DNA of 56,042 nucleotides from a virus (IMGVR_UViG_3300017973_000002:1-56042), one strand, 5' to 3'; positions 4,737 to 33,415 are shown, counted from the first letter of the stretch. Program-made: numbers and translations. The notes: a model not told the origin generated them from the letters alone.

Positions 4737-4748
4737 AAAAAATGCCCC

Positions 4749-16378: not shown

Positions 16379-16648
16379 TTAAACGTAAATTTCTTTTATG
16401 TTCGGATCATCATGTTCATTCGGCATTATCTTGGTGTAATACGGTGGAATCGTTTTGCGAATATCTTCTATTGTATCTGCTAATGTATAACAATTTGTTG
16501 GTTTATCTGTATCAAATAACCTTGCTACAAAGTGTTGTGGAAAATCTAACGGTTTTTCATACACAACAATAATAGGTAGTTCTATATCAGATAAATCTAA
16601 ATCACTAAAATGGTTAATGGGTTCGTTTATCATTTTATTTTTTCCCAT
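16379..16648 (-). CDS. Hypothetical protein (89 aa) co-transcribed with the abrB homologue
   Basis: Track ORF overlapping the abrB-like stop. Weak RBS (alternative ATG at 16633). Confidence 0.55.
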   Translation of the reverse strand: MGKNKMINEPINHFSDLDLSDIELPIIVVYEKPLDFPQHFVARLFDTDKPTNCYTLADTIEDIRKTIPPYYTKIMPNEHDDPNIKEIYV

Positions 16649-16919: not shown

Positions 16920-16950
16920 TTTTCTCCCGCCTTTTTGTTGTAATCGTCTA

Positions 16951-16981
16951 AATTTTACCATATTTTGAATTAATAGGTATA
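16951..16981 (-). promoter_or_regulatory. Extended -10 promoter (TGGTAAAAT) for the abrB-like operon
   Basis: Minus-strand TGGTAAAAT = 16960..16952, about 25 nt upstream of the RBS. The -35 is weak. Confidence 0.45.
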
Positions 16982-17667: not shown

Positions 17668-18073
17668 TTTTATTATCCCCCTTATTTTTAATAATCTCTA
17701 CGGCTTGGGCTAACACTTTTGGAATGGGTAAACCGATTCTGGAACTATTTTCGATGATGGATAAAATTTCATTGGCGATATAAAAGTACGTTACCGCACT
17801 TGAAACCATACTGACTTCTCCAAGTATCCTATCTATTAAATGACCAACAGCTACAAGTGAAAACATAGCCATTTTCTTAGCAATCCCTCTAAAGCCAACT
17901 TTACTTGATAATTTACCTTCAATACCACCTGCAAGACCCCCAGTTAAGTAATCCATACATGCAAGCGTTAAAAGAACACCAAGCGCAACTGACCAACCAC
18001 CAAACAAATATCCCACCACCCCTCCTAGTAAGCCTGCTTCTACACTAAAATGATTCCATTTCCCCCAGTTCAT
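17660..18073 (-). CDS. Holin (phage_holin_4_1 / Hol44-like)
   Basis: Start at ATG 18073 behind AGGAGG; the track's 5' extension overlaps the giant gene. LACMDYLTGGLAG...LSSKVGFRGIAKK signature and three hydrophobic helices. Confidence 0.85.
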   Translation of the reverse strand: MNWGKWNHFSVEAGLLGGVVGYLFGGWSVALGVLLTLACMDYLTGGLAGGIEGKLSSKVGFRGIAKKMAMFSLVAVGHLIDRILGEVSMVSSAVTYFYIANEILSIIENSSRIGLPIPKVLAQAVEIIKNKGDNKND

Positions 18074-18120
18074 ATAACGACCTCCTATTCCTTTAAAGTG
18101 TAGAGGACAATATATGCTAA

Positions 18121-18155
18121 AAAAACGCAAAAAAAGAGGGGCATTACACCCCTCT
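18121..18155 (-). terminator. Intrinsic terminator after the giant gene
   Basis: AGAGGGG-CATTACA-CCCCTCT hairpin (18135..18155). On the minus strand it is followed by UUUUUUUGCGUUUUU. Confidence 0.7.
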
Positions 18156-18158
18156 CCT

Positions 18159-21100
18159 TTACTTTTTACGAAGTTGTTTTTCTTGCTCTTTTTTCTGTGC
18201 ATTGTATTGTTGTACCCAGTTCCAAACTTCATTTAAGTTGTTCTCGTCATGTGGCTTATATTTGTTACCAATTCGAGCAATATCCATGCGTGCTTTTTCA
18301 AGTTTTGATAAGTAATCTTTTTTCTCTTGTGGTGAGATATTCGCATTACTCACATCACGCTTCATTGCACCGATAGTTGTCATAGTTGAACGCATACCCT
18401 CATATGATTTTACAATCTCATTTGGGTGATACTTTACTCCGTACCTATCTTTTGCCCCTTCTACGACTTCATGCGCTTTGTCATAAAATTTAGTCGTGTT
18501 ACGTGATCCGAATTCATCATTTGTATAGAACATGTTACCAACCACTGGTGTATCTTTTTGTGGTTTACCCATGAACAGTTCTAGTGCGCCTGCACCGTAT
18601 TTTCCAAAGAACCCTTTGATAAAGTAATCCATTTTCATTGGAGAAATACCGCCAAAATACTTCATATCTTCTGGTGACTTCCCTTTATTCACATAGTCAA
18701 AGTACGCTTTTGCTTGCCACTTACTAAAGCTACTTGTGTTTTCGTCATATTGTTCCAATGTTGGTTTCTTTTGTAAGTAGTCTGGAACAATCGGTGAACC
18801 AAAATACGTTTTGTTGCTATTCAGTTCTAGCATTGTGCTAATCCAAATTGGTACAACTGGCATACTGAACGCTTGGTCAATTGGGTTGAACCAATCCTCA
18901 CCGATTTTACGTGCTTCTTCGCTACCAAACTGAGAATCTAAAAATCTTTCTACATAAGCCATCGGCAGGGCATACATAAATGGTTTTGCAATCGCAATAT
19001 ACCCGAACCCAGTTGGCATTAACCAATAACGGTCACGGAAATATGACGGAATATCATCGTATTTATCATCACGGTCTAATGCTTTCGCTAAGAAGTACAT
19101 CATTAAGGTAATCGGTAGAATTTTCATTGCCATACGCCCAAGCACACGCTTCGGATTTGTTTTAAACTCCGTTGATTCACGGTACATACCTTGTATGCTA
19201 CCATGTGCGAATGATACTGGCATTGTCACTTTACGGAATCCTTGATTTACACCATGTAAACGGAAGTTCGTTGTAATGATATTCGCTTCGTGACCTGCTG
19301 AAATAAAAATCTTTTCAACCTTCTTGCGATCCTCGGCCGATAACTTCTTACGTCCGTCCATAATGTCATTGAATGATAGTCCTTCTTCTTCTGCTAGTTT
19401 CTGAATCATCGCAAACCATTGACCCATGCGGTGAATACTTTCACCTTTATGGAGATACGCACTCGGATTAAAGACTTTAAATAATTTATTATTTTTTAAC
19501 TTAAACAATGTCGGGTCGCCAGTTGGAAGTAAATCTTCCATTTTATTTGCTTTACGGAAATTTCGTAAAACAGATTCAGTTGAAGCGCTCATGCCCCCAC
19601 TATTGATGTATTGTTCAGTCGTATTTTTATCCATTCCAAGTGCAAGTGCTGTACCTTTGAATAAAGAGTATATCGCCCCTCGGCCACTGTTCGTTTGCAT
19701 TGCTGTACCCATTGTGTCACGAACTAATGAATCTGTGATGAATTTTGCGGTTGCGATATTTGTTAAACGTGTAAATCCAGATAGTCTACTTACAATTCGT
19801 AAATATGCTCCAACTGTTAGAGGTTGCATACTTGCTAAAGCATTATAAATATCTGGTGCAACTCGCATGAAAACTGGAATACGTTTACCTTTACTGTCAT
19901 ACTTCCAATTCATCAAGATTGGTTCTTTACTGCTTAACTGGTCACGTTTCATGAAAATCTGGAATACGTGTCCAGATAGAGAACCTTCTACATCATCTGG
20001 GTTAATACCTAAATCTTGATTAAGGATCGTTGCAACAGCTTCATCAATTTGCCCTGCTGAAATTCTTGCTACATAGCTTTGTGAAGGAATGATTTCACCA
20101 AATTGCCCCATACCTTCGGTTCTAAGTGCATTTTCTAAGCTATTTAAGACCCCTTTAAATTCTGCACTCGTTTCTGTTTCAACTAGCTTATACATTGAAG
20201 CTGTTAAGAAGTCTAACACAATCGCTTGTTTACCAGTGTAGGTTTTAACAGTTTGACGTGCTGATTTACGTTGTCCGTCTTGGCCGTTCAATCCTTCTCT
20301 CTTACTTGCATAATATGTTGGAATGTAGAAACTTGAGCCTTGTTTTACTTTTTCTTTTGTAATTTCATCAATGACTGTTCCTTGAAGTGCTTTTTCTAAG
20401 ACGATGTTACTTAGGTTTTCTGTGTACTCTTTAACGATATTTTCAAGGAATGGGAATAATTGTCTGCTATCCTCGATAATTTTCTTCGTTAAATTTTCAC
20501 TCATTGGGTTCACTTCAAACTTCTGTTCACCATCTTGGTTGAGCCTTGAATAACGTTCATTGTATCGGTATGCCTGCATAATAACAGATAATGTTTCAAA
20601 TGCGCTCATATCATTTTCTTTTCCAAGAATTGTATCAAGCGCTTGTTGAATAGCAGGACTTCTCATACCATCAAGTGCTTTACCTTTTAAGGTTAAATTG
20701 ATTTTTTCAAGTCCGTCCATTGCTACTTCTTGCAAGCTACGTGAACTAATTGCGTGAAGGTTCGCAAGTTCTTTAGGATTAGTAATACTTGAATCTTTTT
20801 TGTATTCTTTATAGAAATTTTCATAACGTTTTAGTGTACTTGGTGGAACGACTGTTTTATCTTCACGTTCTATCGCAAGGTATAAATCATGTAAGTGGTC
20901 TGGTAATTCACTGAAATTATCATACTGAATGATATTACGTCCACTGTTATCCTTCGCCCAACCAGTAAAGCTATTAATCGCTTTATCTCGGCCTTCACCT
21001 GCAAGTACCACACGTTTCACTAATTGGAAGTCTTTAATGTCACCATTCGCTTTTTCCATATCTTGAAATGGTATTGTGAAATCAACTAAGTCAAATACTC

Positions 21101-24100
21101 TACGTGCTACGAATCCTTTGACTGTTCCAGTTAATTTTTTACGAATTGGCGCATGTTTATCAACTTTCCCAACTTTGTATTCTTCACCGATCCCTTTTGA
21201 AATCTTATCGTCTTTTGGGAATTTAACTGTTCCAGAACCTCTTGTGAAGCTATCGCCTTCTGTATCCTTCGTTGCCCACTCTTTAGCATCATCAAAAGCA
21301 CTTTTCAGTTCCTTGTTTCCTTCGATGAACGTATCAATGAAAGAAACTGATTGTGGTGCTAGTTGTTTCGCCCCTTCATTGTCGATAAAGTACATCTGGA
21401 ATAGTTCAGCAAGACCTTCTTCTGCAACTTCTACTGGGTTTAATCCAGTTAAATCTGGGTACACTTCATTCGCTACATGTGTTAATTCTTTTTCGAGTGA
21501 TTTAAACACATCGAATCCAACATTATTCACAAACGCATGACCAAGTTCATGTGCCGTTACACGTAAGTTATGAACTTCTACCCCTCTAACGTTACCAGTC
21601 TTTCTGTGCGTATCATACATCGCTCTAACTTGCGAGCCACCACGGACGTATCCTTCACGTAAAACCGTATCAAGTGCATTGGCTATTCTATCACCAATTT
21701 TCTTCGCAACCTTCGGACTAATGACATTCGTTGTACCACCATCAAGACTTGTATCTAATAAGTTTTTGATACGGTCTTTTTTACCTGCTTTTAAGTTTTT
21801 AGCTGTGTTATTTTCACCTTCTGCTTTTGTGCGTTGTTCAGCTTCTTGTTGTCTTATGCTTTCAGCATTGTGTTTACGTTTTGTTGCTTCGCCCTCTGTA
21901 ATCCCTTTACGGTCTGTACGTTGGTAGTTGCGAATAAATTCCGTAACTGGCATTTGTTCTGAATTACCAGTCGTATAAATTTCGTGTTCTGTTTCATTTC
22001 CCGCACCGAATAAATCTGGATCACTAGACTTCGTAATATCTGTGATTTCTGAAACAACTACATCTGTTTTATAGTCTGGTTTATCTTCTTTAAGTTTCTG
22101 CTTATTTTTCGAAGGAACTGCACGGTAATCAATACCAGTCACCGTATAAAGTTTTCCGTCAGCTCTAAATACAGTATCAAAATTATTTGTTAATTCATGT
22201 TGTAAGGCTTCTTGACGTAAGCTAATGACATTGTTTTCAAGTTCTCTTAGCTTATCGCCCTCGGTGAAGTTTTCCGTTGCTTTCTTCTCTGATTCTTTTT
22301 TCGCAACTTCTAGTTCAGCTAACTGTTTTTCAGTGTATGGAGAATAACCTTTCTTCGCTAATGTTTCTACTGTATTTTCAAGACGTGCCATTGTTCCACG
22401 TCCTTCACTAGCAATAATATCACTAGCTTGAGTACGATTATAACCATTTACTGTACCGTCTTTTGCAATTTCACCGATTATTAAACTTTCATCAAGACCT
22501 AATGACTGATATGCGCTTTTACGTCCGTACATTACAACGTCCACACCACCAAGTTGACCAAGAACCTCTTGATAGTTTTGTTTACGTTCTTTTTTACGAA
22601 TGTCTAACACTTTCTCACGTAAGGCTTCTGTACCTTCCTTACGGTCTGTAAATGTTTTTCCGTCCATCACTAAATGAAAATCATCGCCACGAGTTGATTT
22701 AGCTTTTGCTTCTAACTTTTTATCAAAAGCAAGGGTTTCTTCTAAACTAGCTTTCTTCTCTGGGTATTCAGCAATTAGTTTAATTGCTTTCCCTTTTTGC
22801 TTCGTAAACTCACGCTGTAAATCAACTAAACGTCTAATCTCTTTTTCTATTTTCATTAATTCAATCATGCTCGTGTTACCAGTTGCACTCGCTTTGATTT
22901 CAGAAAAACTCATAATCTGTTCAGCGATTTCGTCCATCGAACGAATTTCAGTACCACCAGACATTACCTGTGCGATGAATTTCGCTTTGCTTTCAAGGGT
23001 ATTCCACATTAGGGCATCAAAACTTCCCTCGGTTACATAAGTCTTTATCGCAACATTTGGATTGAAGTTCCCTTGACGGATAATACGTCCCTCACGCTGT
23101 TCGATGTCGGCAGGTCGCCAAGTGGGATCAGCATGATGTAGCATTGTTAGACGTTTTTGTAAGTTCATACCAACGCCCATTTTTCCAGTTGAACCAATTA
23201 ATATTCGAATTTGCCCATCATTAAATAATTGAGATAATTTTTTCTTTTGGTCTGGTTTATTGTAATCGTGGATAAAGGCGATATGGTTTTCATCTATACC
23301 AAGTTCTACCAAACGATCTTTTAGGTTTTGGTACATACTTTTGTCAAACGCACTATCGTTATTACCTTCATCATCTTCTTTTACTTTGTCACTTGCTTTT
23401 GGTACACCAATATCCATGAATACAATCTGCGTACCATTATCAAACTTAAATTCTTTCCCTTCGCCATCAACACCTACATTATCTTTTGTTGTTCGTTTGT
23501 ACTCGTCAACTACTCCATTTGCAATTTCATTTAACTTGCTTCTTGGGTCACTCTCGGCTGTTCCATCAAATAAACGATAATCAAGCGCTAGTTGTTTACC
23601 TTCACCAGTTAGTTTCAGTGGATTGTCTTTAGAAGGGTCGTCAATTCCATTCGCTACAACTTCAGCACGTTTGACTATTATTTCTAAGTAAGTCCGTTGC
23701 TTTTCGTTCATAGGTGTTGTGATGGTAATACGGTCAGCATTTGGTCGTTTTAAATACGGAATATCATCAGCCATTTTTATATCAGCAATTGACTTAAAGA
23801 TACGCATAAGTTCAGCTACACTTGTAAATTTAGAAAAACGAGTTTTCTCAACGAATTTTCCTGCGGTATTTAATTCAACAGAATTTACTGTTGATCCAAA
23901 CATCTGCGCCCAACCATCAAAATGTTCCATACCTAGCTGTTTTAATTCATTTGGTGCAAGATAACGAAGTGTTGTAAACATTTCAGCCATACTATTTGCA
24001 ATGGGTGTACCAGTTGCAAAAACAACTTTACCGTTATTCTTATTCATATAGGAAGTTTTCATATACATATCAAACGCTTGTTGGCTATTTGAATTTGGCA

Positions 24101-27100
24101 AACCACCAATGCTTCCTAGTTTTGTATGGTATTGCAAATTCTTATAGCTGTGTGCTTCATCGACAAATAAAGCATCAACGCCTAATTCTTCAAATGAAAT
24201 CCCTAAATCTTTTTTATCTTTCTGCATTAAGGTTTCAATCTTTGCTTCATGCTTTTCAATCACTTTTTGAATTTCTTTTACTGTTGGCGACTTCCCATCT
24301 TCACTTTGTACGCTTTCAAGGAACGAACGTAATTTTGAAATTTCAGAATGAAGAAACTCTTGTTCATTCTCTGGGTTCAGTCCAAGTCGTTTAAAACTTT
24401 CGTAACTCATAATGACTACATCATAGTCACCATATTTTACATCAGCTAATGAACGGAAACGTAAAGCACGGTTCTTTTCAACTTCCATTTCGTACTGTTC
24501 ATCGCTCCACTTAGCATTACGAGTAATTGTGATCCCTGCAATATCCTTTTCTGTTTTCCCAGTCCCAATGACTTTGATTTTAGCGTTCGGATACGAATGT
24601 TGGAATTCCCTTGCGTGCTGTTCCATCATAAAAGTAGGAACAACCATCATTGGTTTTTTGATAATTCCTAGTCGTCTACCTTCCATGATTGAAACTTGCA
24701 TTTCTAAACTTTTTCCCGCACCCACAACATGTGCCAGTAACGTATTTGCTGAACGTAATATACGCATAACCGCATCTTTTTGGTGCTTGTATAACTTATA
24801 AACTGGGTTTAGGTTCGGAATTTCAACTGGGTTTTCATCAGTTCCATACATTCTCTCGCCATCGTATGTTCTTGGAACAACACTTGTGAATGAATCATTA
24901 TAGAGTTTCGTTAAATTTTCATTTACATCTGGTTCACCAATGACGAATTGTTTTAATTCATTCTGCAACTGTTCAACCACACGGTTAGAGATATTCAAGA
25001 TTTCTTCCCTTGCTTTATCTTGTTCACGCATAGGAGTATTTTCTACATCTAACGGTGGTTTTGATGATTTCATATTCATTAAATCTTCAATGACTTGGAT
25101 TCCAGTTTTTCCATACTTCGCATACTTGTGGCTAATCGCAAATGTTTCATTATTATGATGAGAACGTCCAGTTGTCGATTTTAACCCCCACGTTGCTGTA
25201 TCAAAGTTATGTGTGACTGTTACATTACTTAAACCAAGCGTTTTTTCAATGAATCGTTTGTAAACTTCTTTTGGAATCCACCCTTGTCCAAAACGAATGT
25301 CGTCAGCAATTTGTTCCATTGTTAATTGTGACGGAAGAACCTTTTCAAGTTCTGCAATATTACGGTTTAATCCATTCGCTTTTGCTACTGCTAATTTTTT
25401 AGCGATATTTCCACTTAAATACTCATCGTCCGTTACATACGCTTTTTCTTGTGGGTCATAGTAAATGTGACCATCTTTTTCAAGTTCTGCGATTGTATCG
25501 TCTTTTGATTTACCAAGTAAGTCGGAAACTAATTGAAGGTCTAACTCACCACGATGAACAAGTGATAAATTAAGCGCTTCTTTTACATTACCTTTTGTAT
25601 CCATTACAACATCTGGAAATGTTTGACGCGCCTTGAATAAATCAACTTTTGCCCACTTCTTACCATCTCGTTTTTCAAGTGAACGAAGCATAGCAACTGT
25701 ATGAACATCTTTTTCAAATGGTGTGAGTACCCCTTGTTTATTCATTTCACCGTGGGTTTTCACAAAATCATCATACATTTTATTTAACGCTTCACGTTCT
25801 TTTACCATATCTTCTGACGGAATGGCTTTGTTTTCTTCTTTTGCCATTAAGTCTAAGTAAGATTGGCGAACCTTTAATGAATCTCTTAATACTGGAACGT
25901 GTTCTTTTGCTACTTTATATGGAATCCATTGACCATATGTGTACTGGAAGAATACACCACCACGCTCATGAATTGCCCCTTCATGTTGGCCGATTGTTTC
26001 TTTTGCCCAGTCCTCACTTACAGCGTTATTCACTTTTACTGGCACATCACTTACCGCATTACCGTGAATAAAACGATTTTCAAAAATCTTTTTAATCGTT
26101 TCAAAAGCCTTTTTGAACTTTTCTTCGAATCCATCATTCGTAAACACTAGTTCGTCATGGTAGCGAGTACCTTCTTTCATTCCCCCTGCAAGTTGCTCTG
26201 GGTTTGCAATGAAGTATTCATTTAATTTACTGCGACTTCTACCGTCATAGCTGACATTTTCTGCGATACGTGAAGATGTGTGATTACTACCTTGTACTTT
26301 TTTACGGAAAAATAAAATATCCGTTGCAACATTTGTGCCTGCGTGTTTAAATGCTCCTTGCGGTAAACGGATCGCTTCAAAAAAGTCTGTATTCGCTTCA
26401 ATATATCCACGAACTTGTTGACTTTGCCATTCCTTCCCATCAAGTGAGCTAGTCGAAGTGATTAATAAACCAATACCACCTTCTTTTAAAAGGTCTAGGT
26501 TCTTCACTAGGAAGTAATCATGCACGTTATGTGTCGCATAAGTCATTAAAACTCCGTTATGGTCTAATTTCCCTTTTGGTAGACGGTTGCCTTCTTCGTC
26601 TTTTTTCTGACCTTTCGTTTTGTCCGTGTAAGTTAAATCATTTACTTTCTTATCAACGAACGGAACATTACCAATAACAACATCAAAGCTACCTTCGGTT
26701 GCGCTAAAATTTTGGAATCCCATATGATGATGGGTTTGGTTCGGATACAGTGCCTTTGTAATTCGGTGCGATAAATCATTCAGTTCAACTGTTGTGAATT
26801 TATGTTTCCCTTTTACTTCATCAACTGGGAACGCTCCAACAAACATACCGTTACCAACTGAACTTTCTAAGATTTTTCCACCATCAAAGCCTGCTCCAAG
26901 TAATACATCATACATTTGACTAGCGATTTCGTGACTTGTGTAAAAACTTGTTAAGACTGTATCACGCATACCTTCCCACTCTTGCTGTGTAATCAATCCA
27001 CTTTCTACGTGTGACTGTAATTCAGCATATTGTGGTTTTGATCGGTCAAAATATTCTGGTAAACCGCCCCAACCTTGATATTTAGCTAGAGTATCTAATT

Positions 27101-30100
27101 CCTCTGCTGTACCAAAACGGTCTTCACGTTCTAACATTTTAAGAACGTTAATTGCTTTTATGTTGTTCTCAAAACGTTTTTTTGCATTTGGTTCAAAAAT
27201 ATCCTCTGTAATTACATGGTCTAACGGAACAATTCGCTCATGAGGGATTCCATTATTTGACGGTGACGTGATAGTATCTCCTGCTGATCCATTCGGTTGT
27301 TTTGTCCCTTGATTGGATTCTGTACTAGGCTTGCTGTCATTTGTTCGTTTACTGCCGTCATTAGGTCTTTCTCCGTCTTTTCCAGAAACAGTTTCAGTTG
27401 GTTTGTTTGTTTCAGTTCCTTGTACTGGTTCGGTTGGCGTTCCATTAGGTAGCTTTCCAGTTCCGTTAATGTTGGAAACATTCTTTTCACCCTCTTTATT
27501 TAATCTTTCGAGCGCTTTAGCAATAACTAGTTTTGATGAACGGTCATTAAACATTTGGTCTAAGACTTTCATTTCACCATCACGATTATTTTCCATCGCA
27601 TCATTCATACGGTCTACTACCCAGTCTGTGATATGTCTATTGAATATCATTGACAAGTTATTTACTGAATCATTTGGGTTTTCTTTAACATATGTTTGGA
27701 AGTTAGGAAAGTTTGCTAATTTCTCTGCAAAGTGATTTACACCGTCAGTAAATTTTTCAAGACTTGCTTCTCCGCTTCCCAAATCGGTATTCCCTTTGCC
27801 AGTAACGTCTGCATTTCCTTGTTCATTTCCTTTTGTTTCTGTATCGCTAGGGTTTGGAGTTGATGAAGGCTCATCTCCTTGTACTTCATTGGTTGTGTTC
27901 TCTCTAGGTGTTGGAGAAACATCAGTCCGTACCTCGTTAGCATTGTTTTTCACCTCTTGACCAAGCATTTCTTTTGCTGAATCTAATTCTTGTTGCCTTG
28001 CAAAATTAACTGTATTATAAAAATCCTCTAAATTAAAGAAACCATGCTTTTGAACGAAACTCTGTGCAGATGGAATACCGTATGCTACATCTCTTAATTC
28101 TTGCAATTTCGAACCTTCCATTGCATATTCCATGTTCATGTAATCATTTACATCAGCTACACTAAAGATATGCTTCATTTTCTTTCCATTAATATCTTCA
28201 TTGCGATATGGCATACCTAACAATTCGCCTTTAATTGGGAATATCCATTCTTGCTTAGGTTCTTGCCGTCCGAAACGCTCCATTGGTGTGAATTTAACAG
28301 TTGCAGATTTTTTATTTTCACTGTATGCCATTTCTGGGAATCCACTACCATCAACGCTATCTTCATCTAATTCAGCTTGTTTAAAATCTTCGAATTTATT
28401 ATATCGTTCAGCAGTATCAACAAATGTTTTTAGTTGTGGTTTTTTAAGTGCTTCAACTTTTTCTTTTAAAATTTCAGAAGGAGGAACTACATCGTCCTTA
28501 TTCCAAAATTGCATTGCGCCATGACTTTCCATTCCCGAAACTGTCAATCCTGCGGGTGCTAATACTCTTAACATTTCACCTTCTTTATAATCTGTTTCGA
28601 GTACCCCAGTAACATTACTTATCTTGTTTTTTACAAATGCACCTTTTTTAAATTCAGTTTCATTTTTTGTGACCGTTTCTGACCCTTGACTTTCATTTAC
28701 ACGTCCATTATCTTGCTGTGTAGTTTCATTATAAGTAGGAAGTTTTTTATTAATACGGTCAAGTGCTTTTTGCATACTAATTGTAATGCCATTTGGACGG
28801 TTACGTTCATATGTTACTTTACCAATATGTGCAGACTTACGTTTGAATCTTTGGTCTGTTATTAATCGTTCTAGTTCATGTGGTAAACGGCCATCGAATG
28901 TATAACGAATAATTTTACCATCTTTTTCAAGTTTTCCTTCTTTTGCAAATGGAATTTGAGCGTATCTTTCTGCTTCACTTAGATTTATGTCGTTCATGAT
29001 CTCATTCATACGTGCAGTGTGTTCAGATAACGTATTGATATTGTCATTTATTTGTTTTTCGTCTTGCGCTTTTTTATCTTTCTTAGCTTGTTCTTCTTGA
29101 CGTTTTTCTTCTTCTTTTTGTGCTTGTTCTTCTGCAATTTTACGATTTTCTTCTTCTGTTGCTTGACGTTCTGCTTCTTTCATACGGTTAAAATCTTCCG
29201 CATGTGCAGGGTCTTCCGTTGGTGCATTTTCCCCTAAAATTTGATTACGGATATTGTCAATTTCATGGGTAGTTAAACTCATTTCTTCCCACATTAATTT
29301 CTCTTGAATGTTATTGGTAGACAGATAAGGGTCTTTTTCTAACATATCCTTAACAGCATTATATTCTTCTGAATGGTTCGTTTGAACTTCTTGTCCACCA
29401 TCAATAAAATCTTTTGTCATTTCAATTACATCATGGTTCGTTTCTGTGTAACGGTCTGGATAGTTTTCTACTAATTTTTGTTTCATTTCATCTATGTTCA
29501 TATCAAACATATTGTAAACGTCCCAACCGTGCTGTGTATCTTCTAATACAACAGCTACATGACGATCCATTTTCCGTATCTTATTAACAAGAGATTTTCT
29601 TTCTTTCTTACTTAATGCTTGATAACGGTCATATTCCATTAAATGATGATAAATATGTTCGTCCTCTGGACTAATATCTTCTGCTTTACTGCGTTCTTTT
29701 TCTGCATACGCTTCTTGTCGTTTTTGATTTTCTTCTTCTTGTTTACGTTGTTTTTCTTTTTCAGTTGCTTTATCTTCTTTGTTTTGTTCAACTTGCTTTT
29801 TAAAATTATCTAAATGGGTTTGAAGTCCTTGATTAAACTCGATACCATTCGCTTCTGCAAATGCTTTTAGTTCTTCAAGTTTTTTCATTCGGTGCTGTGG
29901 TGTACGTTTGCCCATTGTGAAAAATTCTTTCTTCATTTCATCAAACTGTGCTTGTGCGCCTTTTTCAGACGTGCGACCAGTTTCGGCTACTTTTCCAGTG
30001 CCTTTTTTATGTTGCCATTCATATAAACGTGATGTTGGAACAACATGTGTACCAATTTTTCCTCCTGCATCAACCGTGATGTAATGTCCACTTGGATCAC

Positions 30101-32927
30101 GTTCGATTACCGTACCTCTTGTTGAATAACCGTCATTTAAAACTTTTGAAGCATTGCGTATTGGTTCTCCTTCTTCATCAAGTGAATCAGTCGTATACGA
30201 TTTCCCTTTAAAATCGTGAATAACTCGCCAACCTACTGTATCCCCTACATGATATGGGTGGTCAATCATTTGTGGTTCGTGGCCGAAACTATCGAAAACT
30301 TGTTTCAATTCTTCATGGTTATCCATTTGTTCAATTGGAATACTGTAAGTTTGATGATTATTTGAATTATGGTCATGCACATGAACTGATTTTTGCGCTT
30401 CAAATGGTCTTGTAGGGTCAATATGAAAATCCTTATCTACCTTAAATGGTATGCCATTTTTTGAAACTATTTGACCTTTAATAAAGAACGGTGAATCTAC
30501 TGTTGGTTCATTTACTGGTTGTTGCTCTTGAACTGGTTGATGAACTTCTTGTACTGGCACATCATGGATTGGTGCATTTGCTAATACTTCTGCATGGTTC
30601 AATTGTTCACCAAAATAAGCATTGTTAATTCGGTTTACGTCACGGTTTGTACGTGCTGTGTCCATTTCGTTTATATAATCATGTTGGTCTTGTGGTGATA
30701 ACTGTGAAAAGAATGGATACAGTGCATCTTCTGTATGGTGAAGTGGATCATCATTTAATTCTGGTTTCATAAATTTTTGAACTAAATCACTTGCACCTTC
30801 TACATGATTAACGTTATTTGGATTACGAAGAATCGCATGTGTTGGAATTTCTTGTGTTGCACCAGTTTTTGTATTTTTAACTGTTGTTTTATCAAGGTTC
30901 GGACTATATCCCATTACTTCTAACTGATTTTTACCAGTCGTTACGGTACTTCCAACTGGAATCAATTGGTCAAGAATGTTCTGTTTATCGTAATGGAATG
31001 GGTCGCTATGATGTGGTTGAACTTGTTCTTGAACTGGTTCTTCATTTGGAATATGGAATCCCATTTCGCCTACTTGCCCATTATCAATTACCGGACTTTG
31101 AACTGGATTATCAAGTACCGTTGCTTCTGGTAGAGAAGCCTGTGGGTGTTCAACTTGTGAACGACCAATTTGGAATTCTGTTCCTAGTGCATTTTGAACA
31201 ACTAACATAGAAGGGTCTTTTGAATCGACTACTGTTAGTGGAATCCCTTTATCTTTCCAGATAACTGTATCGCCATTCTCTACGATTGTACCGACTGGTT
31301 TTCGTGTTGAGTATTGTTGTTCCTCTGCTTTTTGATTCATTTCTTCTTTAATTTTTAAGTCATTAATATAATCATGCGTTGCATTTGTGATAACGTCCTC
31401 GCCACCATTTTGAACTAAGTCCTCGTAAGCGAAGTCATGCGCTTGTTCTTCTGTCATGCCTTGATTTAAACCGTGTTGTTTTGCGGTATCGAAACGTCTT
31501 TTTTGTTCATCTGATAAATTACTTTGTACTTTTTCATCAACATGGGTTAATATGTCATGCGCTGTATGAACACCAGTCGTAGCACCACCCATTAATGCAC
31601 CAAGCATACCTGCTTCAATGGTTGATGGGTCAGTCCATGAGAACGGATCACCTAACGCATTAGCTGAAATTCTATTTTGGTTTGCTTCTTGTATACCTTC
31701 GGTAGCTGAACCACCTGCTGTTTTTAAAGTAACTGCGCCAACCTTACCAACTTTATCAAAGATTTTACTCGTTATAGGAAGATGACCAAAACCAAGTTGC
31801 CCTGCATCGAGTAACGTATTTGTTATCAGATTGTCACGGAAGTCTTTTCCATATGCTTCTGTTGGATTAAGTCCACGTTGTTCTGCTTGGTTATAAACAC
31901 TTCCTGCTTCTTGCATAGAATCTTCCGTGGCCATTACTAAACCACTCGCAAGATGATTAGTAAGAATCCCTGCAAGACCTTGTAGTTTATTAATTTTTGA
32001 TAATCCCCCAAGTAATGCTGAACCAGTCGCATAACTAAGCGCAACGTTTGGTACGATTTCACCACCACGGTCAATTAAGTAATCTGGGTTCATTAAGTCT
32101 TTCATTTGGAACTGGTGATTATTAAATTTATCCAGTCCTTGAAAGCCTTTCATATTGTCATACGCATAGTCAGTGACACTTTTACCCATATCGTGAACTG
32201 TTTGGCTACCCATTTTATCTCCGAGGTATTTAAGTGTACCACCAATACCATCGCCTAGCATTTGGTCTGTTCCTCGTGTCCAACTTGCACCTAAACGTTC
32301 AATTGGACTTCGGTTTTCGGCTTTATCTGGTATAAGAATACCTCTTGCAAGGTCATATCCTGTTTTTAGATAACTTAGTGGGGTTTGTGGCAAGATGTCA
32401 TTCGCCACTGAACCAACTGATTTCACACCAGAATATATTTCAGAACCGACTGATTTCCCAATATCCCCTAATGCTTTCATGTAGCCCCCAACTTCATCTG
32501 TAAGGGTTGCATACGGCTTGTAGCCTTGTTGATAGCTAGATGGGTCACTTGGGACATTGGTATTCCCACTTTTGCTAGATGGTTCATCAAACAATTGGCG
32601 CATTTTATTTTCATAATGCTGTTGTTGTAAATCTTTTGCTTGTTGTTGGTATTGCTGTTGTTCTTTAATTCGTTGCCCTGCTTCATAAACATCATTGGCG
32701 TTTTGTCTTGCTTGTTCATGCGCTTGATTTTCAGCTTGAATTTGCGCTTCTTTCACTCGTTGCCCTGCTTCATAAACGTCATTGCTGTTTTGCCGTGCTT
32801 GTTCATGTGCTTTACTTTCATCTACAAGATCAGAAAACGGCATTTTAATGTTGTCTAAATTAATGTTATCCAAACTGCTTCGTTGTTCTTGGAGTTTCTT
32901 TTTCCAATAATCACTGTATTTTCCCAT
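18159..32927 (-). CDS. Giant 4,922-aa multidomain ('polyvalent', DarB-like) virion/ejection protein. Contains an N6-adenine MTase, an SNF2/DEAH helicase, an HExxH metallopeptidase and a C-terminal hydrophobic module.
   Basis: Single uninterrupted ORF. ATG behind GAAAGGAAGTGG. Motifs listed as separate features. Location in the late structural block after the SLT protein. Confidence 0.9.
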   Translation of the reverse strand: MGKYSDYWKKKLQEQRSSLDNINLDNIKMPFSDLVDESKAHEQARQNSNDVYEAGQRVKEAQIQAENQAHEQARQNANDVYEAGQRIKEQQQYQQQAKDLQQQHYENKMRQLFDEPSSKSGNTNVPSDPSSYQQGYKPYATLTDEVGGYMKALGDIGKSVGSEIYSGVKSVGSVANDILPQTPLSYLKTGYDLARGILIPDKAENRSPIERLGASWTRGTDQMLGDGIGGTLKYLGDKMGSQTVHDMGKSVTDYAYDNMKGFQGLDKFNNHQFQMKDLMNPDYLIDRGGEIVPNVALSYATGSALLGGLSKINKLQGLAGILTNHLASGLVMATEDSMQEAGSVYNQAEQRGLNPTEAYGKDFRDNLITNTLLDAGQLGFGHLPITSKIFDKVGKVGAVTLKTAGGSATEGIQEANQNRISANALGDPFSWTDPSTIEAGMLGALMGGATTGVHTAHDILTHVDEKVQSNLSDEQKRRFDTAKQHGLNQGMTEEQAHDFAYEDLVQNGGEDVITNATHDYINDLKIKEEMNQKAEEQQYSTRKPVGTIVENGDTVIWKDKGIPLTVVDSKDPSMLVVQNALGTEFQIGRSQVEHPQASLPEATVLDNPVQSPVIDNGQVGEMGFHIPNEEPVQEQVQPHHSDPFHYDKQNILDQLIPVGSTVTTGKNQLEVMGYSPNLDKTTVKNTKTGATQEIPTHAILRNPNNVNHVEGASDLVQKFMKPELNDDPLHHTEDALYPFFSQLSPQDQHDYINEMDTARTNRDVNRINNAYFGEQLNHAEVLANAPIHDVPVQEVHQPVQEQQPVNEPTVDSPFFIKGQIVSKNGIPFKVDKDFHIDPTRPFEAQKSVHVHDHNSNNHQTYSIPIEQMDNHEELKQVFDSFGHEPQMIDHPYHVGDTVGWRVIHDFKGKSYTTDSLDEEGEPIRNASKVLNDGYSTRGTVIERDPSGHYITVDAGGKIGTHVVPTSRLYEWQHKKGTGKVAETGRTSEKGAQAQFDEMKKEFFTMGKRTPQHRMKKLEELKAFAEANGIEFNQGLQTHLDNFKKQVEQNKEDKATEKEKQRKQEEENQKRQEAYAEKERSKAEDISPEDEHIYHHLMEYDRYQALSKKERKSLVNKIRKMDRHVAVVLEDTQHGWDVYNMFDMNIDEMKQKLVENYPDRYTETNHDVIEMTKDFIDGGQEVQTNHSEEYNAVKDMLEKDPYLSTNNIQEKLMWEEMSLTTHEIDNIRNQILGENAPTEDPAHAEDFNRMKEAERQATEEENRKIAEEQAQKEEEKRQEEQAKKDKKAQDEKQINDNINTLSEHTARMNEIMNDINLSEAERYAQIPFAKEGKLEKDGKIIRYTFDGRLPHELERLITDQRFKRKSAHIGKVTYERNRPNGITISMQKALDRINKKLPTYNETTQQDNGRVNESQGSETVTKNETEFKKGAFVKNKISNVTGVLETDYKEGEMLRVLAPAGLTVSGMESHGAMQFWNKDDVVPPSEILKEKVEALKKPQLKTFVDTAERYNKFEDFKQAELDEDSVDGSGFPEMAYSENKKSATVKFTPMERFGRQEPKQEWIFPIKGELLGMPYRNEDINGKKMKHIFSVADVNDYMNMEYAMEGSKLQELRDVAYGIPSAQSFVQKHGFFNLEDFYNTVNFARQQELDSAKEMLGQEVKNNANEVRTDVSPTPRENTTNEVQGDEPSSTPNPSDTETKGNEQGNADVTGKGNTDLGSGEASLEKFTDGVNHFAEKLANFPNFQTYVKENPNDSVNNLSMIFNRHITDWVVDRMNDAMENNRDGEMKVLDQMFNDRSSKLVIAKALERLNKEGEKNVSNINGTGKLPNGTPTEPVQGTETNKPTETVSGKDGERPNDGSKRTNDSKPSTESNQGTKQPNGSAGDTITSPSNNGIPHERIVPLDHVITEDIFEPNAKKRFENNIKAINVLKMLEREDRFGTAEELDTLAKYQGWGGLPEYFDRSKPQYAELQSHVESGLITQQEWEGMRDTVLTSFYTSHEIASQMYDVLLGAGFDGGKILESSVGNGMFVGAFPVDEVKGKHKFTTVELNDLSHRITKALYPNQTHHHMGFQNFSATEGSFDVVIGNVPFVDKKVNDLTYTDKTKGQKKDEEGNRLPKGKLDHNGVLMTYATHNVHDYFLVKNLDLLKEGGIGLLITSTSSLDGKEWQSQQVRGYIEANTDFFEAIRLPQGAFKHAGTNVATDILFFRKKVQGSNHTSSRIAENVSYDGRSRSKLNEYFIANPEQLAGGMKEGTRYHDELVFTNDGFEEKFKKAFETIKKIFENRFIHGNAVSDVPVKVNNAVSEDWAKETIGQHEGAIHERGGVFFQYTYGQWIPYKVAKEHVPVLRDSLKVRQSYLDLMAKEENKAIPSEDMVKEREALNKMYDDFVKTHGEMNKQGVLTPFEKDVHTVAMLRSLEKRDGKKWAKVDLFKARQTFPDVVMDTKGNVKEALNLSLVHRGELDLQLVSDLLGKSKDDTIAELEKDGHIYYDPQEKAYVTDDEYLSGNIAKKLAVAKANGLNRNIAELEKVLPSQLTMEQIADDIRFGQGWIPKEVYKRFIEKTLGLSNVTVTHNFDTATWGLKSTTGRSHHNNETFAISHKYAKYGKTGIQVIEDLMNMKSSKPPLDVENTPMREQDKAREEILNISNRVVEQLQNELKQFVIGEPDVNENLTKLYNDSFTSVVPRTYDGERMYGTDENPVEIPNLNPVYKLYKHQKDAVMRILRSANTLLAHVVGAGKSLEMQVSIMEGRRLGIIKKPMMVVPTFMMEQHAREFQHSYPNAKIKVIGTGKTEKDIAGITITRNAKWSDEQYEMEVEKNRALRFRSLADVKYGDYDVVIMSYESFKRLGLNPENEQEFLHSEISKLRSFLESVQSEDGKSPTVKEIQKVIEKHEAKIETLMQKDKKDLGISFEELGVDALFVDEAHSYKNLQYHTKLGSIGGLPNSNSQQAFDMYMKTSYMNKNNGKVVFATGTPIANSMAEMFTTLRYLAPNELKQLGMEHFDGWAQMFGSTVNSVELNTAGKFVEKTRFSKFTSVAELMRIFKSIADIKMADDIPYLKRPNADRITITTPMNEKQRTYLEIIVKRAEVVANGIDDPSKDNPLKLTGEGKQLALDYRLFDGTAESDPRSKLNEIANGVVDEYKRTTKDNVGVDGEGKEFKFDNGTQIVFMDIGVPKASDKVKEDDEGNNDSAFDKSMYQNLKDRLVELGIDENHIAFIHDYNKPDQKKKLSQLFNDGQIRILIGSTGKMGVGMNLQKRLTMLHHADPTWRPADIEQREGRIIRQGNFNPNVAIKTYVTEGSFDALMWNTLESKAKFIAQVMSGGTEIRSMDEIAEQIMSFSEIKASATGNTSMIELMKIEKEIRRLVDLQREFTKQKGKAIKLIAEYPEKKASLEETLAFDKKLEAKAKSTRGDDFHLVMDGKTFTDRKEGTEALREKVLDIRKKERKQNYQEVLGQLGGVDVVMYGRKSAYQSLGLDESLIIGEIAKDGTVNGYNRTQASDIIASEGRGTMARLENTVETLAKKGYSPYTEKQLAELEVAKKESEKKATENFTEGDKLRELENNVISLRQEALQHELTNNFDTVFRADGKLYTVTGIDYRAVPSKNKQKLKEDKPDYKTDVVVSEITDITKSSDPDLFGAGNETEHEIYTTGNSEQMPVTEFIRNYQRTDRKGITEGEATKRKHNAESIRQQEAEQRTKAEGENNTAKNLKAGKKDRIKNLLDTSLDGGTTNVISPKVAKKIGDRIANALDTVLREGYVRGGSQVRAMYDTHRKTGNVRGVEVHNLRVTAHELGHAFVNNVGFDVFKSLEKELTHVANEVYPDLTGLNPVEVAEEGLAELFQMYFIDNEGAKQLAPQSVSFIDTFIEGNKELKSAFDDAKEWATKDTEGDSFTRGSGTVKFPKDDKISKGIGEEYKVGKVDKHAPIRKKLTGTVKGFVARRVFDLVDFTIPFQDMEKANGDIKDFQLVKRVVLAGEGRDKAINSFTGWAKDNSGRNIIQYDNFSELPDHLHDLYLAIEREDKTVVPPSTLKRYENFYKEYKKDSSITNPKELANLHAISSRSLQEVAMDGLEKINLTLKGKALDGMRSPAIQQALDTILGKENDMSAFETLSVIMQAYRYNERYSRLNQDGEQKFEVNPMSENLTKKIIEDSRQLFPFLENIVKEYTENLSNIVLEKALQGTVIDEITKEKVKQGSSFYIPTYYASKREGLNGQDGQRKSARQTVKTYTGKQAIVLDFLTASMYKLVETETSAEFKGVLNSLENALRTEGMGQFGEIIPSQSYVARISAGQIDEAVATILNQDLGINPDDVEGSLSGHVFQIFMKRDQLSSKEPILMNWKYDSKGKRIPVFMRVAPDIYNALASMQPLTVGAYLRIVSRLSGFTRLTNIATAKFITDSLVRDTMGTAMQTNSGRGAIYSLFKGTALALGMDKNTTEQYINSGGMSASTESVLRNFRKANKMEDLLPTGDPTLFKLKNNKLFKVFNPSAYLHKGESIHRMGQWFAMIQKLAEEEGLSFNDIMDGRKKLSAEDRKKVEKIFISAGHEANIITTNFRLHGVNQGFRKVTMPVSFAHGSIQGMYRESTEFKTNPKRVLGRMAMKILPITLMMYFLAKALDRDDKYDDIPSYFRDRYWLMPTGFGYIAIAKPFMYALPMAYVERFLDSQFGSEEARKIGEDWFNPIDQAFSMPVVPIWISTMLELNSNKTYFGSPIVPDYLQKKPTLEQYDENTSSFSKWQAKAYFDYVNKGKSPEDMKYFGGISPMKMDYFIKGFFGKYGAGALELFMGKPQKDTPVVGNMFYTNDEFGSRNTTKFYDKAHEVVEGAKDRYGVKYHPNEIVKSYEGMRSTMTTIGAMKRDVSNANISPQEKKDYLSKLEKARMDIARIGNKYKPHDENNLNEVWNWVQQYNAQKKEQEKQLRKK
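18822..19148 (-). other. Three hydrophobic, transmembrane-like segments near the C-terminus of the giant ORF
   Basis: MAMKILPITLMMYFLAKAL (from aa 4594), YWLMPTGFGYIAIAKPFMYALPMAYV (from aa 4634), FSMPVVPIWISTMLEL (from aa 4687). Confidence 0.55.
21537..21551 (-). other. HExxH zinc-metallopeptidase motif within the giant ORF
   Basis: VTAHELGHAFVNN, with HELGH at aa 3793-3797. Confidence 0.6.
23067..24722 (-). other. SNF2/DEAH-box helicase core within the giant ORF
   Basis: Walker A GAGKS (aa 2736-2740, nt 24708..24722). DEAH (aa 2923-2926, nt 24150..24161). Motif VI QREGRIIRQGN (aa 3277-3287, nt 23067..23099). Confidence 0.85.
26658..26873 (-). other. N6-adenine DNA methyltransferase catalytic core within the giant ORF (motif I to motif IV)
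   Basis: Motif I ILESSVGNGMFVG (aa 2019-2031, nt 26835..26873). Motif IV NVPF, a (D/N)PP(Y/F) variant (aa 2087-2090, nt 26658..26669). Confidence 0.75.
32658..32810 (-). repeat. 87-bp (29-aa) tandem duplication at the N-terminus of the giant protein
   Basis: AHEQARQNSNDVYEAGQRVKE... / AHEQARQNANDVYEAGQRIKE... . CGTTGCCCTGCTTCATAAAC recurs at 32671 and 32758. Confidence 0.85.
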
Positions 32928-32989
32928 GTTCCACTTCCTTTCTGCTCACTAGAGCATACGAAAAAAGAGTAGGGATAACCCCCACTCTC

Positions 32990-33415
32990 TTAGTACCATT
33001 TATTTTTATCCCAGAACGCTAAGGCTTTCTCAACTGAACCGTATCGTTCGGTTGCGTATTTATATGCTAAAACAATTTGGTCTACTGGATCGTTGTAATT
33101 TAAGTTAGGATACTTTTTCGCATAAGTTTTTACTGTGCCGTTTAGGAACTGAGCATATCCATGAGCCGTACTGCTTGGATTCTTCGAATTGGCATTTAAG
33201 CCACTTTCCCTAGCAATTAACTCTGTTAGGTTTTGTGCTTCGGAAGATGGCACACCTTTATTAACAGCTTGTGATAAATGACCATTGAACGTTTGTAAGT
33301 TCTTGCTGTTACTAAATTGCGGTGTTTTCCAGTAATTATTATACGTTCCAGTATTATTCGTTATCATCTCACCCTTTACTTGTGTATTTGGTGCTACTTT
33401 CCCCCAGTGTTCCAC
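32990..33415 (-). CDS. Lytic transglycosylase (SLT domain) virion-associated lysin
   Basis: ARESGLNANSKNPSSTAHGYAQF (catalytic E-S and GYxQ motifs). Start uncertain (GTG 33415 or ATG 33367). Confidence 0.8.
   Translation of the reverse strand: MEHWGKVAPNTQVKGEMITNNTGTYNNYWKTPQFSNSKNLQTFNGHLSQAVNKGVPSSEAQNLTELIARESGLNANSKNPSSTAHGYAQFLNGTVKTYAKKYPNLNYNDPVDQIVLAYKYATERYGSVEKALAFWDKNKWY

Follow-up and report, generated by a model that had tools for sequence, protein, structure and literature searches.

Reading frame and domains of the giant protein

A single open reading frame (ORF) of 14.8 kb, encoding a protein of 4,922 amino acids that we refer to as the giant, was found in the viral sequence IMGVR_UViG_3300017973_000002. 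The giant belongs to the already described DarB-like class of polyvalent proteins, here in a previously unsampled lineage. All 56,042 nucleotides of the sequence, referred to as the window, were analysed; they comprise a 55,919-nt unit and a 123-nt terminal overlap and correspond to one contig from one sample (ENA ERZ27251256, contig k141_1990640). An earlier reading of the sequence alone (the original prediction) had proposed, without stating the strand, an uninterrupted ORF filling about 26% of the unit. The ORF was confirmed on the minus strand, where it accounted for 26.4% of the unit (Table 1), and the two other frames of the same stretch contained 329 and 599 stop codons. The good ribosome-binding site (RBS) that had been proposed was also present, as AAAGGAAGUGG ~5 nt ahead of the ATG. 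The encoded protein is 556 kDa with a pI of 5.8 and contains no cysteine.

The middle of the giant encoded a dyad in which an N6-adenine methyltransferase (MTase) is fused N-terminally to an SNF2-type ATPase, and this dyad was homologous to DarB of phage P1. The MTase region was identified by the Pfam Eco57I model and by precomputed matches to PF28553 and PF28554, and its phmmer comparison with proteins of phages PEp14, LASTA, VvAW1 and JC1 gave E-values of 1e-53 to 1e-80. The SNF2 region matched phage giants at E 1e-118 to 1e-127 (phmmer). The giant also matched PHROG 10089 ('DarB-like antirestriction'; E = 0, profile length 4,647) in an alignment reaching amino acid 3695, and tblastn showed 27.8% identity (E 1e-12) to darB of P1/P7. 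Along with the LPD38 domain described below, these matches upheld the proposal that the protein is polyvalent and DarB-like.

Motif I of the MTase (ESSVGNGMF) and motifs I (GAGKS), II (DEAH) and VI (QREGRIIRQGN) of the SNF2 region were intact. Motif IV of the MTase read GNVPF at amino acids 2086–2090 (26666–26680, minus strand), whereas the proteobacterial phage homologs had GNPPF. GNVPF was common to five of 12 metagenomic giants (among them P0126, P0134, P0138 and P0150) and one giant had GNQPF. As the variant recurred in five of the 12, NVPF is a lineage trait, selected rather than decayed. N-x-P-[FY] variants of motif IV can be active, as in the Erm/KsgA methyltransferases.

A tblastn search with amino acids 1880–3700 returned 148 phage records, the best of which (PEp14, LASTA, Itty13, Atu_ph08, VvAW1 and Ralstonia/Burkholderia phages) showed ~30–33% identity over 85–93% of the query (~1,650 amino acids). 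The dyad was encoded by podophages of ~55–63 kb with Erwinia, Klebsiella, Pseudomonas, Agrobacterium, Sinorhizobium, Ochrobactrum, Ralstonia, Burkholderia and Microcystis as hosts, and VvAW1 (Vibrio) was also among the phages with giant dyad proteins. Additionally, many stand-alone MTase-SNF2 proteins of ~850–1,200 amino acids were found in bacterial genomes and in elements resembling integrative and conjugative elements (ICEs). In the record MN270259.1, named 'Streptococcus phage phi-SgaBSJ31_rum', a DarB-like SNF2 gene was interrupted by a retron-type reverse transcriptase, which is probably a group II intron. This SNF2 gene adjoined a relaxase gene, a Tn5252 orf9 homolog, zeta/epsilon toxin-antitoxin genes and AbiGI, and the region resembles an ICE more than a phage.

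The last ~1,200 amino acids of the giant (~3730–4915) formed a C-terminal module that was conserved in all relatives. At its start, H3793, E3794, H3797 and E3837/E3841 were invariant in 12 giants, with the acidic residues ~40–44 residues later in a gluzincin-like arrangement. The sequence AHELGHAF was kept in L012, a metagenomic contig described below, and aligned with AHEMAHYL of Vibrio phage giants. The HExxH region matched Pfam ATLF (anthrax lethal factor family) at E 1e-3, below the cut-off, and a PDB sequence search gave matches at E > 0.1 alone; from its motif, the domain is predicted to be a gluzincin-type metallopeptidase. The LPD38 domain carried the conserved motifs [IA][AP]KPF and FG.P[IV]VP as well as three hydrophobic helices (amino acids 4599–4617, 4641–4659 and 4686–4704). 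A profile of the VvAW1, Vib1211A, PTXU04 and Pascal proteins matched amino acids 4144–4884 at E 5e-39. The MTase, SNF2 helicase, HExxH peptidase motif and three hydrophobic segments of the original prediction were accordingly all recovered by Pfam, motif and hydropathy analysis.

An AlphaFold model of the C-terminal module (21-sequence multiple sequence alignment; pLDDT 70, pTM 0.58) placed three strands plus helices at amino acids 3732–3912 (pLDDT ~80) and reached pLDDT 85–92 at ~3972–4202. In a Foldseek comparison with BFVD, this model gave 51 significant hits, with E-values down to 1e-27 and, over >1,000 columns, a TMq of up to 0.50. Every hit was the C-terminal part of a phage protein labelled 'large polyvalent protein associated domain', and the annotations elsewhere in these proteins were methylase, LT_GEWL lysozyme, RelA/SpoT, Zeta toxin or crystallin-like. 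Comparison with the PDB gave weak local matches to minigluzincins and to a Mycobacterium tuberculosis transcriptional regulator (6cz6/6d2s).

At the other end, a conserved N-terminal block contained two hydrophobic helices (amino acids 291–333), the sole ones outside the enzymes and LPD38, and a glycine-zipper-like GMLGALMGGATTG (amino acids 439–452). BLASTP aligned this block with the metagenomic giants P0125 (34% identity, E 2.5e-62), P0128 (E 3e-50) and P0126 (E 7e-35), and also with P0127, P0130 and P0131. Its profile match to the N-termini of VvAW1, Vib1211A and PTXU04 was weak (5.4 bits; maximum 0.4 in 200 shuffles). No Pfam model exists for the block, and tblastn of amino acids 1–1650 against phages gave no match. 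A correspondence between this N-terminus and the SLT region of PEp14-type giants was rejected, the PEp14/LASTA/JC1 N-terminal profile being not significant against the window.

The 29-amino-acid repeat, the Gly-rich region (amino acids 100–500, 11–14% Gly), the two KE-rich stretches (amino acids ~1001–1100 and ~1201–1300, 30–33% K+E) and the S/T/N/P-rich linkers (amino acids 1600–1900) that had been described were confirmed by self-BLAST and composition. The repeat was present in no metagenomic relative (BLASTP against the giants). The KE-rich region was common to P0130 (35% identity, E 5e-47) and in part to P0128 and P0131. The proposed beta-rich modules of ~50 amino acids were visible by eye at amino acids 541–971 and 1424–1483; as a repeat they were not significant in self-BLAST, and they matched no family or relative. 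Amino acids 604–985 had no match in Pfam, PHROGs, annotated phages or the closest giants, nor had amino acids 1342–1800 (27528–28904, minus strand) in families, annotated phages or the closest giants. In total ~900 amino acids (541–985 and 1342–1800) were without a detectable relative, even in the homolog that is 48% identical, which points to cargo or spacer modules that evolve rapidly or were gained recently.

An exhaustive HMMER search of cluster representatives with amino acids 3723–4922 revealed 2,045 carriers of the C-terminal module at E ≤ 1e-3 and 441 at E ≤ 1e-10. In all 2,045 the module was at the C-terminus, of proteins of ~1,000–5,132 amino acids. Seven carriers (4,017, 4,919, 5,106, 4,275, 2,117, 4,644 and 4,957 amino acids) aligned over the full 1,200 amino acids with 35–42% identity. 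One of these, P0126 (4,919 amino acids), was 48% identical to the giant over its length and was encoded on an independent contig of 48.5 kb, where it is followed by holin_4_1 and amidase genes with ALP_N, YqaJ, RecT and SSB genes nearby. As P0126 lies on a separate contig in the same context, it independently validates the synteny as well as the reading frame. Further support for the frame came from a third contig, L012 (JGI 3300040998, Ga0395526_020285; 45% GC), which encoded a fragment with 51% identity over amino acids 2728–3678. In L012 (3155–3220) there was an in-frame TAG in the low-complexity linker between the helicase and HExxH parts, followed by a new ATG ORF in the same frame that matched amino acids 3736–3875 and contained AHELGHAF. 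This split could be a gene fission, a sequencing error or stop-codon read-through. One relative is in Logan (SRR13007714_28456).

BLAST comparison with the giants divided the protein into three zones: the conserved N-terminal block, the conserved C-terminal module and a variable middle. The dyad occupied the middle in P0126, P0134, P0138 and P0150. In P0125 and P0128 both conserved ends were retained, and Pfam identified a DdrB-like ParB domain between them (E 1e-34 and 1e-36) but neither an MTase nor a helicase.

Table 1. Location of the giant ORF, its regions and its neighbouring features in the window
Feature	Position (nt)	Strand	Amino acids of the giant	Properties
Giant ORF	18159–32927	−		ATG start; 4,922 amino acids; one terminal stop, no internal stop
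29-amino-acid repeat, 2 copies	32637–32810	−	40–97	AHEQARQN[S/A]NDVYEAGQR[V/I]KE...; 20/29 identical; in Q-rich N-terminus
Conserved N-terminal block	31119–32456	−	~158–603	Gly/Ala-rich; BLASTP matches to metagenomic giants
Lineage-specific region	29973–31307	−	541–985	Four or five short beta-looking modules (xxGDxV-type)
KE-rich helical region	28905–29972	−	986–1341	
Uncharacterised region and S/T/N/P-rich linkers	27228–28904	−	1342–1900	Up to 42% STNP
DarB-type N6-adenine MTase, Eco57I-like	24828–27227	−	1901–2700	Accessory WH_1 and DUF8437 domains
SNF2-family helicase/translocase	22728–24827	−	2701–3400	Pfam SNF2-rel_dom and Helicase_C
Post-helicase helical region	21741–22727	−	3401–3729	Ends in low-complexity linker
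HExxH domain	21192–21740	−	3730–3912	Sole HExxH in giant, at amino acid 3793
Conserved, mostly helical region	19134–21191	−	3913–4598	Many invariant columns
LPD38 domain	18558–19133	−	4599–4790	Pfam PF18857, E 2e-27 to 1e-28, 97–101 bits (cut-off 27)
C-terminal tail	18162–18557	−	4791–4922	Helical; K/Q/E-rich end
Hairpin and U-run	~32958–32990	−		11 bp; between SLT stop codon and giant RBS; z = −3.6; 0/200 shuffles fold as well
Intrinsic terminator	~18120–18160	−		14-bp stem at 18130–18160; directly 3′ of giant stop, ahead of holin; z = −4.1
SLT lytic transglycosylase	32990–33415	−		141 amino acids; Pfam SLT E 8e-6; Cys-free
Q/N/M-rich protein	33394–35415	−		673 amino acids; Cys-free; ~15 MPNMGQ-like repeats at N-terminus
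303-amino-acid protein	35432–36343	−		DUF3597-type N-terminal domain and Q/P-rich tail; 22% Gln; AKPPVTQ repeats; Cys-free
Lysis cassette	17068–18073	−		Holin (Phage_holin_4_1, 137 amino acids) and Amidase_3 endolysin; directly downstream of giant
ParB-like protein	9559–10422	−		
Actin-like ALP_N/ParM-type partition protein	15057–15959	+		
MazE/AbrB-type antitoxin	16635–16961	−		

Cysteine suppression, gene neighbourhood and host

The other 49 ORFs of the window contained 0.9% cysteine, from which 44 cysteines would be expected in the giant; none was observed (P ~ 6e-20). The three genes directly upstream were also free of cysteine, giving 6,039 contiguous residues without one, whereas the flanking 575-amino-acid tail protein and the holin contained six and one respectively. 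The suppression extended to the family, as 19 proteins totalling 77,453 amino acids had no cysteine. Three genes upstream of the PEp14 giant were Cys-free, as were the JC1 proteins gp67 and gp68, which lie upstream of the JC1 giant and have been verified as virion proteins by mass spectrometry.

Benchmark phages showed the same partition. No cysteine was present in N4 gp50, gp51 and gp52 (4,294 amino acids), in T7 gp15 and gp16 or in P22 gp7, gp20 and gp16 (1,309 amino acids), all of which are ejected; the ejected T7 gp14, with one cysteine, was the exception. Portals, hubs and spikes contained cysteine, and the P22 proteins that are not ejected had six (large terminase subunit, TerL), four (portal), seven (gp10), four (gp14) and eight (tailspike). 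The head-packaged DarB of the myovirus P1 had nine. A paper of 2024 (PMC11445570) describes cysteine suppression as conserved in the ejection operon of Schitoviridae, ascribes it to envelope passage and also cites an earlier remark on N4 gp50. The hallmark is therefore already published; its extension to DarB-like giants, P22, T7 and the cassette of the window is new here. The four-gene Cys-free cassette is likely to be an ejection apparatus.

The gene order on the minus strand was small terminase subunit (TerS), TerL, portal, a 293-amino-acid protein, major capsid protein (MCP), SU10-type adaptor, a 765-amino-acid P22 gp10-like ('Hc3') protein, tail fibre, the 575-amino-acid protein, the 303-amino-acid Q/P-rich protein, the 673-amino-acid Q/N/M-rich protein, the 141-amino-acid SLT protein, the giant, holin and Amidase_3 endolysin. 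The giant therefore sits with the late genes, preceded on the same strand by the packaging, MCP, adaptor and tail genes and followed by the lysis genes. Its location after an SLT lysin and two low-complexity proteins was as originally described. The 673-amino-acid protein had no family match in Pfam or PHROGs, and the 303-amino-acid protein had no Pfam or PHROG homolog beyond its N-terminal domain. Judged from its matches, the DUF3597-type domain of the latter is possibly peptidoglycan- or wall-binding, and both proteins are candidate co-ejected, wall-spanning partners of the giant. The PHROG matches of the adjacent SLT protein included tape-measure families.

Terminators on both sides of the giant had been proposed and both structures were found (Table 1). 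A hairpin with a U-run was present at the same position ahead of the giant of the 48%-identical relative (contig L014, 188–216, plus strand), with an unrelated stem sequence. The upstream hairpin is likely to be a partial terminator or attenuator, or a stabiliser of the 5′-end of the mRNA. It may throttle transcription into the giant, limiting it relative to the upstream ejection genes and so setting their stoichiometry. A mechanically called holin ORF of 190 amino acids (17660–18232, minus strand) began inside the downstream terminator region. The source-contig call was of 137 amino acids, starting at 18073 after an AGGAGG RBS, and the longer form is probably not real.

The adaptor gene matched Pfam SU10_adaptor, and the 765-amino-acid protein matched the PHROG 'head closure Hc3', a label also borne by P22 gp10. 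Pfam and PHROG scans of the late genes of the window detected no family of tape measure, tube or sheath proteins. As an adaptor and an Hc3 protein were present and none of these families was found, a short-tailed virion is the best inference.

The window has a GC content of 36%. The nearest matches of the endolysin and a RecE-like protein were to Bacillus, Geobacillus and Paenibacillus phages (34–38%), and the nearest MCPs were those of actinophages (25–30% identity). No spanins were seen and no tRNA genes were present in the window. The GC content, the Bacillus-type endolysin and RecE matches, the absence of spanins and the MazE/AbrB-type antitoxin all indicate a Bacillota host, and the host is probably a Gram-positive member of that group.

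All window proteins tested were singleton clusters at 90% identity, the giant being a singleton among ~15 billion proteins. No relatives were found in viral contigs with single-protein queries, or in GTDB genomes or IMG/VR with a 3-sequence alignment; the GTDB search likewise gave no prophage relative. A megablast search with the giant gene against 50,697 phage records gave no match. Besides the antitoxin, the window encoded a ParB-like protein and an actin-like partition protein (Table 1), and contig L014 likewise carried ALP_N (21635–22495). The window ORFs that were scanned included no integrase. The lineage may persist as a plasmid prophage. Additionally, a 121-amino-acid ORF with nine cysteines (7.4%) and no PHROG hit was located at 339–704 (plus strand); its composition suggests that it may be a zinc-binding early protein.

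Comparison with known giant phage proteins

The giant was similar to Bcep22 gp75, JC1 gp69, PEp14 gp27 and LASTA gp01, which are 4,400–4,900 amino acids long and take up 21–24% of genomes of ~60 kb: 4,914 amino acids and 24% in PEp14 (60.7 kb), 4,433 and 21% in LASTA and 4,515 and 22% in JC1. Like the window giant, these proteins are encoded by the last morphogenesis gene ahead of the lysis genes, carry the N6A-MTase and SNF2 dyad (30–37% identity), contain no cysteine and have Cys-free genes just upstream. The PEp14 gene is followed by endolysin and holin genes and that of JC1 by two small reverse-strand genes and a lysis module. As well as the dyad, JC1 gp69 has an LPD38-type C-terminus, and it shares the C-terminal module weakly (E 2.4e-5). 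It was found by mass spectrometry in CsCl-purified virions with 51 unique peptides (PMC9144972).

There were also differences from this group. An SLT motif is fused to the N-terminus of PEp14 gp27, whereas the SLT of the window is encoded by a separate gene and none is present within the giant; the CSP3 homolog is annotated as 'soluble lytic transglycosylase/helicase/methylase'. The C-termini of the PEp14 and LASTA proteins are annotated as a PLxRFG domain (NCBI; LASTA/SopranoGao) and could not be aligned with that of the window giant, which had no NCBIfam hit and no PLxRFG motif. The group has MTase motif IV as NPPF rather than NVPF, and its phages infect Gram-negative hosts whereas the window host is probably one of the Bacillota. 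Membership of the window in the Lessievirus/Pavtokvirus backbone was rejected, as the neighbouring proteins had no BLASTP similarity to those of PEp14.

VvAW1 gp01, Vibrio phage 1.211.A gp14, PTXU04 (Escherichia coli) gp25 and Pascal gp19 shared the C-terminal module, the LPD38 motifs, the slot in the genome and the lack of cysteine. VvAW1 additionally shared the dyad and an aligned HExxH motif, and the weak N-terminal match was seen in VvAW1, 1.211.A and PTXU04. These proteins differ in being shorter and only 22–24% identical, over the C-terminal ~550 amino acids that matched the same-slot proteins of smaller podophages; neither Pascal nor PTXU04 gave a match to the MTase-helicase region. Pascal gp19 (1,672 amino acids), of a Bacillus megaterium phage, matched by its C-terminus and is encoded between a lytic tail protein and a holin. 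The slot was the same in PEp14, JC1, Pascal and P0126: the end of the morphogenesis module, the giant, then the lysis genes.

The original prediction had regarded the size of the giant as unusual for a 56-kb phage, and this did not hold. VvAW1 gp01 (3,640 amino acids) takes up 28% of a 38.7-kb genome, and the metagenomic relatives range up to 5,132 amino acids. Neither the size of the giant nor its share of the genome is therefore unprecedented.

P1 DarB (2,255 amino acids) has a homologous MTase-SNF2 dyad, is packaged in the head and, acting in cis, shields the DNA that enters the cell from type I restriction (PMC5512222). It differs in lacking the N-terminal block, the HExxH domain and LPD38. 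N4 gp50, the virion RNA polymerase (vRNAP), DEV gp71 and T7 gp16 are, like the giant, very large, Cys-free, organised as beads on a string and accompanied by smaller Cys-free ejection proteins. They too have hydrophobic membrane-associating segments and an SLT that is fused (T7 gp16) or adjacent. As the largest of the three podovirus ejection proteins, they also carry an enzyme needed as the DNA enters (PMC13434306, PMC11445570). For N4, a rule of three ejection proteins for short-tailed phages has been set out, with vRNAP passing as beads on a string through a channel of ~35 Å (PMC13434306). No sequence or fold similarity to the N4, DEV and T7 proteins was detected (the fold search being that with the C-terminal model), and the cargo of the window giant is an anti-restriction dyad rather than an RNA polymerase.

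The polyvalent proteins of Iyer, Burroughs, Anand, de Souza and Aravind (2017) combine several unrelated conflict domains in a phage late-gene context. An N6A-MTase, an SNF2 helicase, an HExxH domain and LPD38 were present in the one ORF described here. The methylase-helicase dyad was described by Iyer et al., who reported LPD38 as phage-only, and the giant resembles their proteins in joining the dyad to LPD38 and to a putative zincin-like HExxH domain.

Proposed packaging, ejection and cargo delivery

We consider it probable that the giant is a phage polyvalent protein of the 'DarB-like giant virion protein' class, packaged in the virion and ejected through the tail as an anti-restriction carrier. 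Packaging and ejection had been proposed originally and draw support from the presence of JC1 gp69 in virions, the shared slot and the Cys-free cassette. The giant would be made late and placed in few copies in the capsid of a short-tailed phage. By analogy with the N4 model and P1 DarB, it would then be threaded domain by domain through the portal-tail channel, ahead of or with the DNA. It would travel with its three Cys-free partners, of which the SLT transglycosylase and the putative wall-binding low-complexity protein would deal with peptidoglycan, the Q/N/M-rich protein being the third. The N-terminal block and C-terminal module would form an invariant chassis that the giant needs to be packaged and ejected and probably to associate with membranes, with the hydrophobic helices at its two conserved ends as anchors. 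The middle would be exchangeable cargo, and its MTase-SNF2 dyad may load on the entering DNA and guard it in cis from restriction, which for P1 DarB is of type I. Once delivered, the polyprotein may be cut at the linkers by its HExxH domain to release separate units, a step that Iyer et al. have proposed. A channel-forming function had also been put forward. In its favour are the hydrophobic helices at both conserved ends, which are real and conserved; as the C-terminal model had no significant match in the PDB, and none to T7 gp15/16 or the N4/DEV proteins, channel formation remains something that we infer.

Several points weigh against packaging and ejection. The phage is known from a single metagenomic contig, and the terminator-like hairpin just upstream could mean that the giant is regulated separately. 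P1 DarB, the only functionally tested relative, is a myovirus protein with nine cysteines whose packaging depends on helpers of the DarA/Hdf type, and no helper homologs were seen among the window ORFs scanned, in a scan that was not exhaustive. The structural neighbours are without pairwise BLASTP similarity to those of PEp14. Motif IV of the MTase reads NVPF and not NPPF. The HExxH domain was not recognised by the Pfam model of the polyvalent-protein metallopeptidase family of Iyer et al., just as the N-terminal block is without a model. The model of the C-terminal ~1,200 amino acids had no Foldseek hit in the PDB at E ≤ 1e-3, and none to T7 gp14/15/16 or to the N4/DEV ejection proteins.

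It is unlikely, though worth weighing, that the giant is instead a polyprotein precursor which its peptidase cleaves at the linkers before or during assembly, some fragments being packaged and the rest acting in the producing cell. In favour of this, the HExxH...E residues do not vary among 12 giants, and Iyer et al. have suggested processing driven by the metallopeptidase, noting that cleavage of P1 DdrB precedes its packaging. The separate helicase and HExxH ORFs of L012, split in a linker, also indicate that the units can work apart. However, N4 vRNAP and ArdC/TraC1, which also bear a metallopeptidase, are delivered at full length (PMC5512222), and suppression of cysteine spans the entire chain, suggesting that the whole chain passes the channel. 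The JC1 gp69 peptides came from a whole-lane digest, which carries no information on its size. Peptidase activity of the giant is predicted from the motif, and the fold evidence for it is weak.

It is very improbable that the giant stays out of the virion, as a late cytoplasmic methylase-helicase modifying progeny DNA or as an early anti-defence enzyme whose position in the late block is incidental. Its own RBS, the hairpin just upstream and the many stand-alone MTase-SNF2 proteins would fit such a role. It would leave unexplained 3,000 amino acids of non-enzymatic sequence, a phage-only LPD38 module with hydrophobic helices, the conserved slot and a total cysteine suppression shared with proven ejection proteins, and the homolog JC1 gp69 is present in virions.

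There is scarcely any case for an external structural or adhesion protein, whether a giant fibre, a cell-wall-binding protein or a tape-measure-like ruler. The giant does follow the tail-fibre genes, it has small beta-looking modules and coiled-coil-like KE-rich stretches, and the adjacent SLT has tape-measure families among its PHROG matches. A DNA methylase and an SNF2 ATPase with intact motifs would nonetheless have no purpose in an extracellular protein, and neither family scans nor self-BLAST detected Ig-like or fibre repeats. No tail tube or sheath that would require a tape measure was found among the late genes, and the homologs are internal virion proteins. Finally, several genes joined by assembly errors is almost certainly not the explanation: although only one contig of one sample carries the giant and one relative is split at a linker, P0126 has the same context on its own contig, cultured phages carry homologs of 4,433–4,914 amino acids, and stop codons are numerous in the other two frames and lacking in this one.

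A broader reading may be put forward tentatively, as a possibility that we hold short of an even chance. The giants may be a general cargo-delivery platform, with invariant ends for packaging, ejection and membrane docking between which conflict enzymes are spliced at low-complexity linkers. The proposed cargoes may include the DarB dyad, DdrB-ParB, RelA/SpoT, Zeta toxin and lysozyme. If this is true, the window would be the first complete example in a podophage that infects monoderm (Bacillota-type) hosts and is possibly plasmid-like, and cysteine suppression would not be solely a periplasm-related adaptation. The need to cross a thick wall and a single membrane could then account for SLT being a gene of its own, for the two Q/N/P-rich Cys-free partners and for the ~1,200 amino acids of lineage-specific beta modules and coiled coils.

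Few phage proteins are larger than the giant polyvalent virion proteins, and, to our knowledge, testing of them has been almost confined to P1 DarB and N4 vRNAP. The window does not overturn the current understanding of these proteins, and what it adds, a map of chassis and cargo and a Cys-free cassette, is modest. It extends DarB-type giants from the ~60-kb podophages of Proteobacteria to an unsampled low-GC lineage. With its relatives, it also makes the chassis-plus-cargo layout explicit, as conserved ends enclose either a DarB dyad or a DdrB-ParB middle. The giant provides a basis for asking how a chain of 0.55 MDa is packaged and threaded through a channel of ~35 Å, whether the invariant HExxH domain acts as a processing peptidase and whether such a platform could deliver foreign enzymes.

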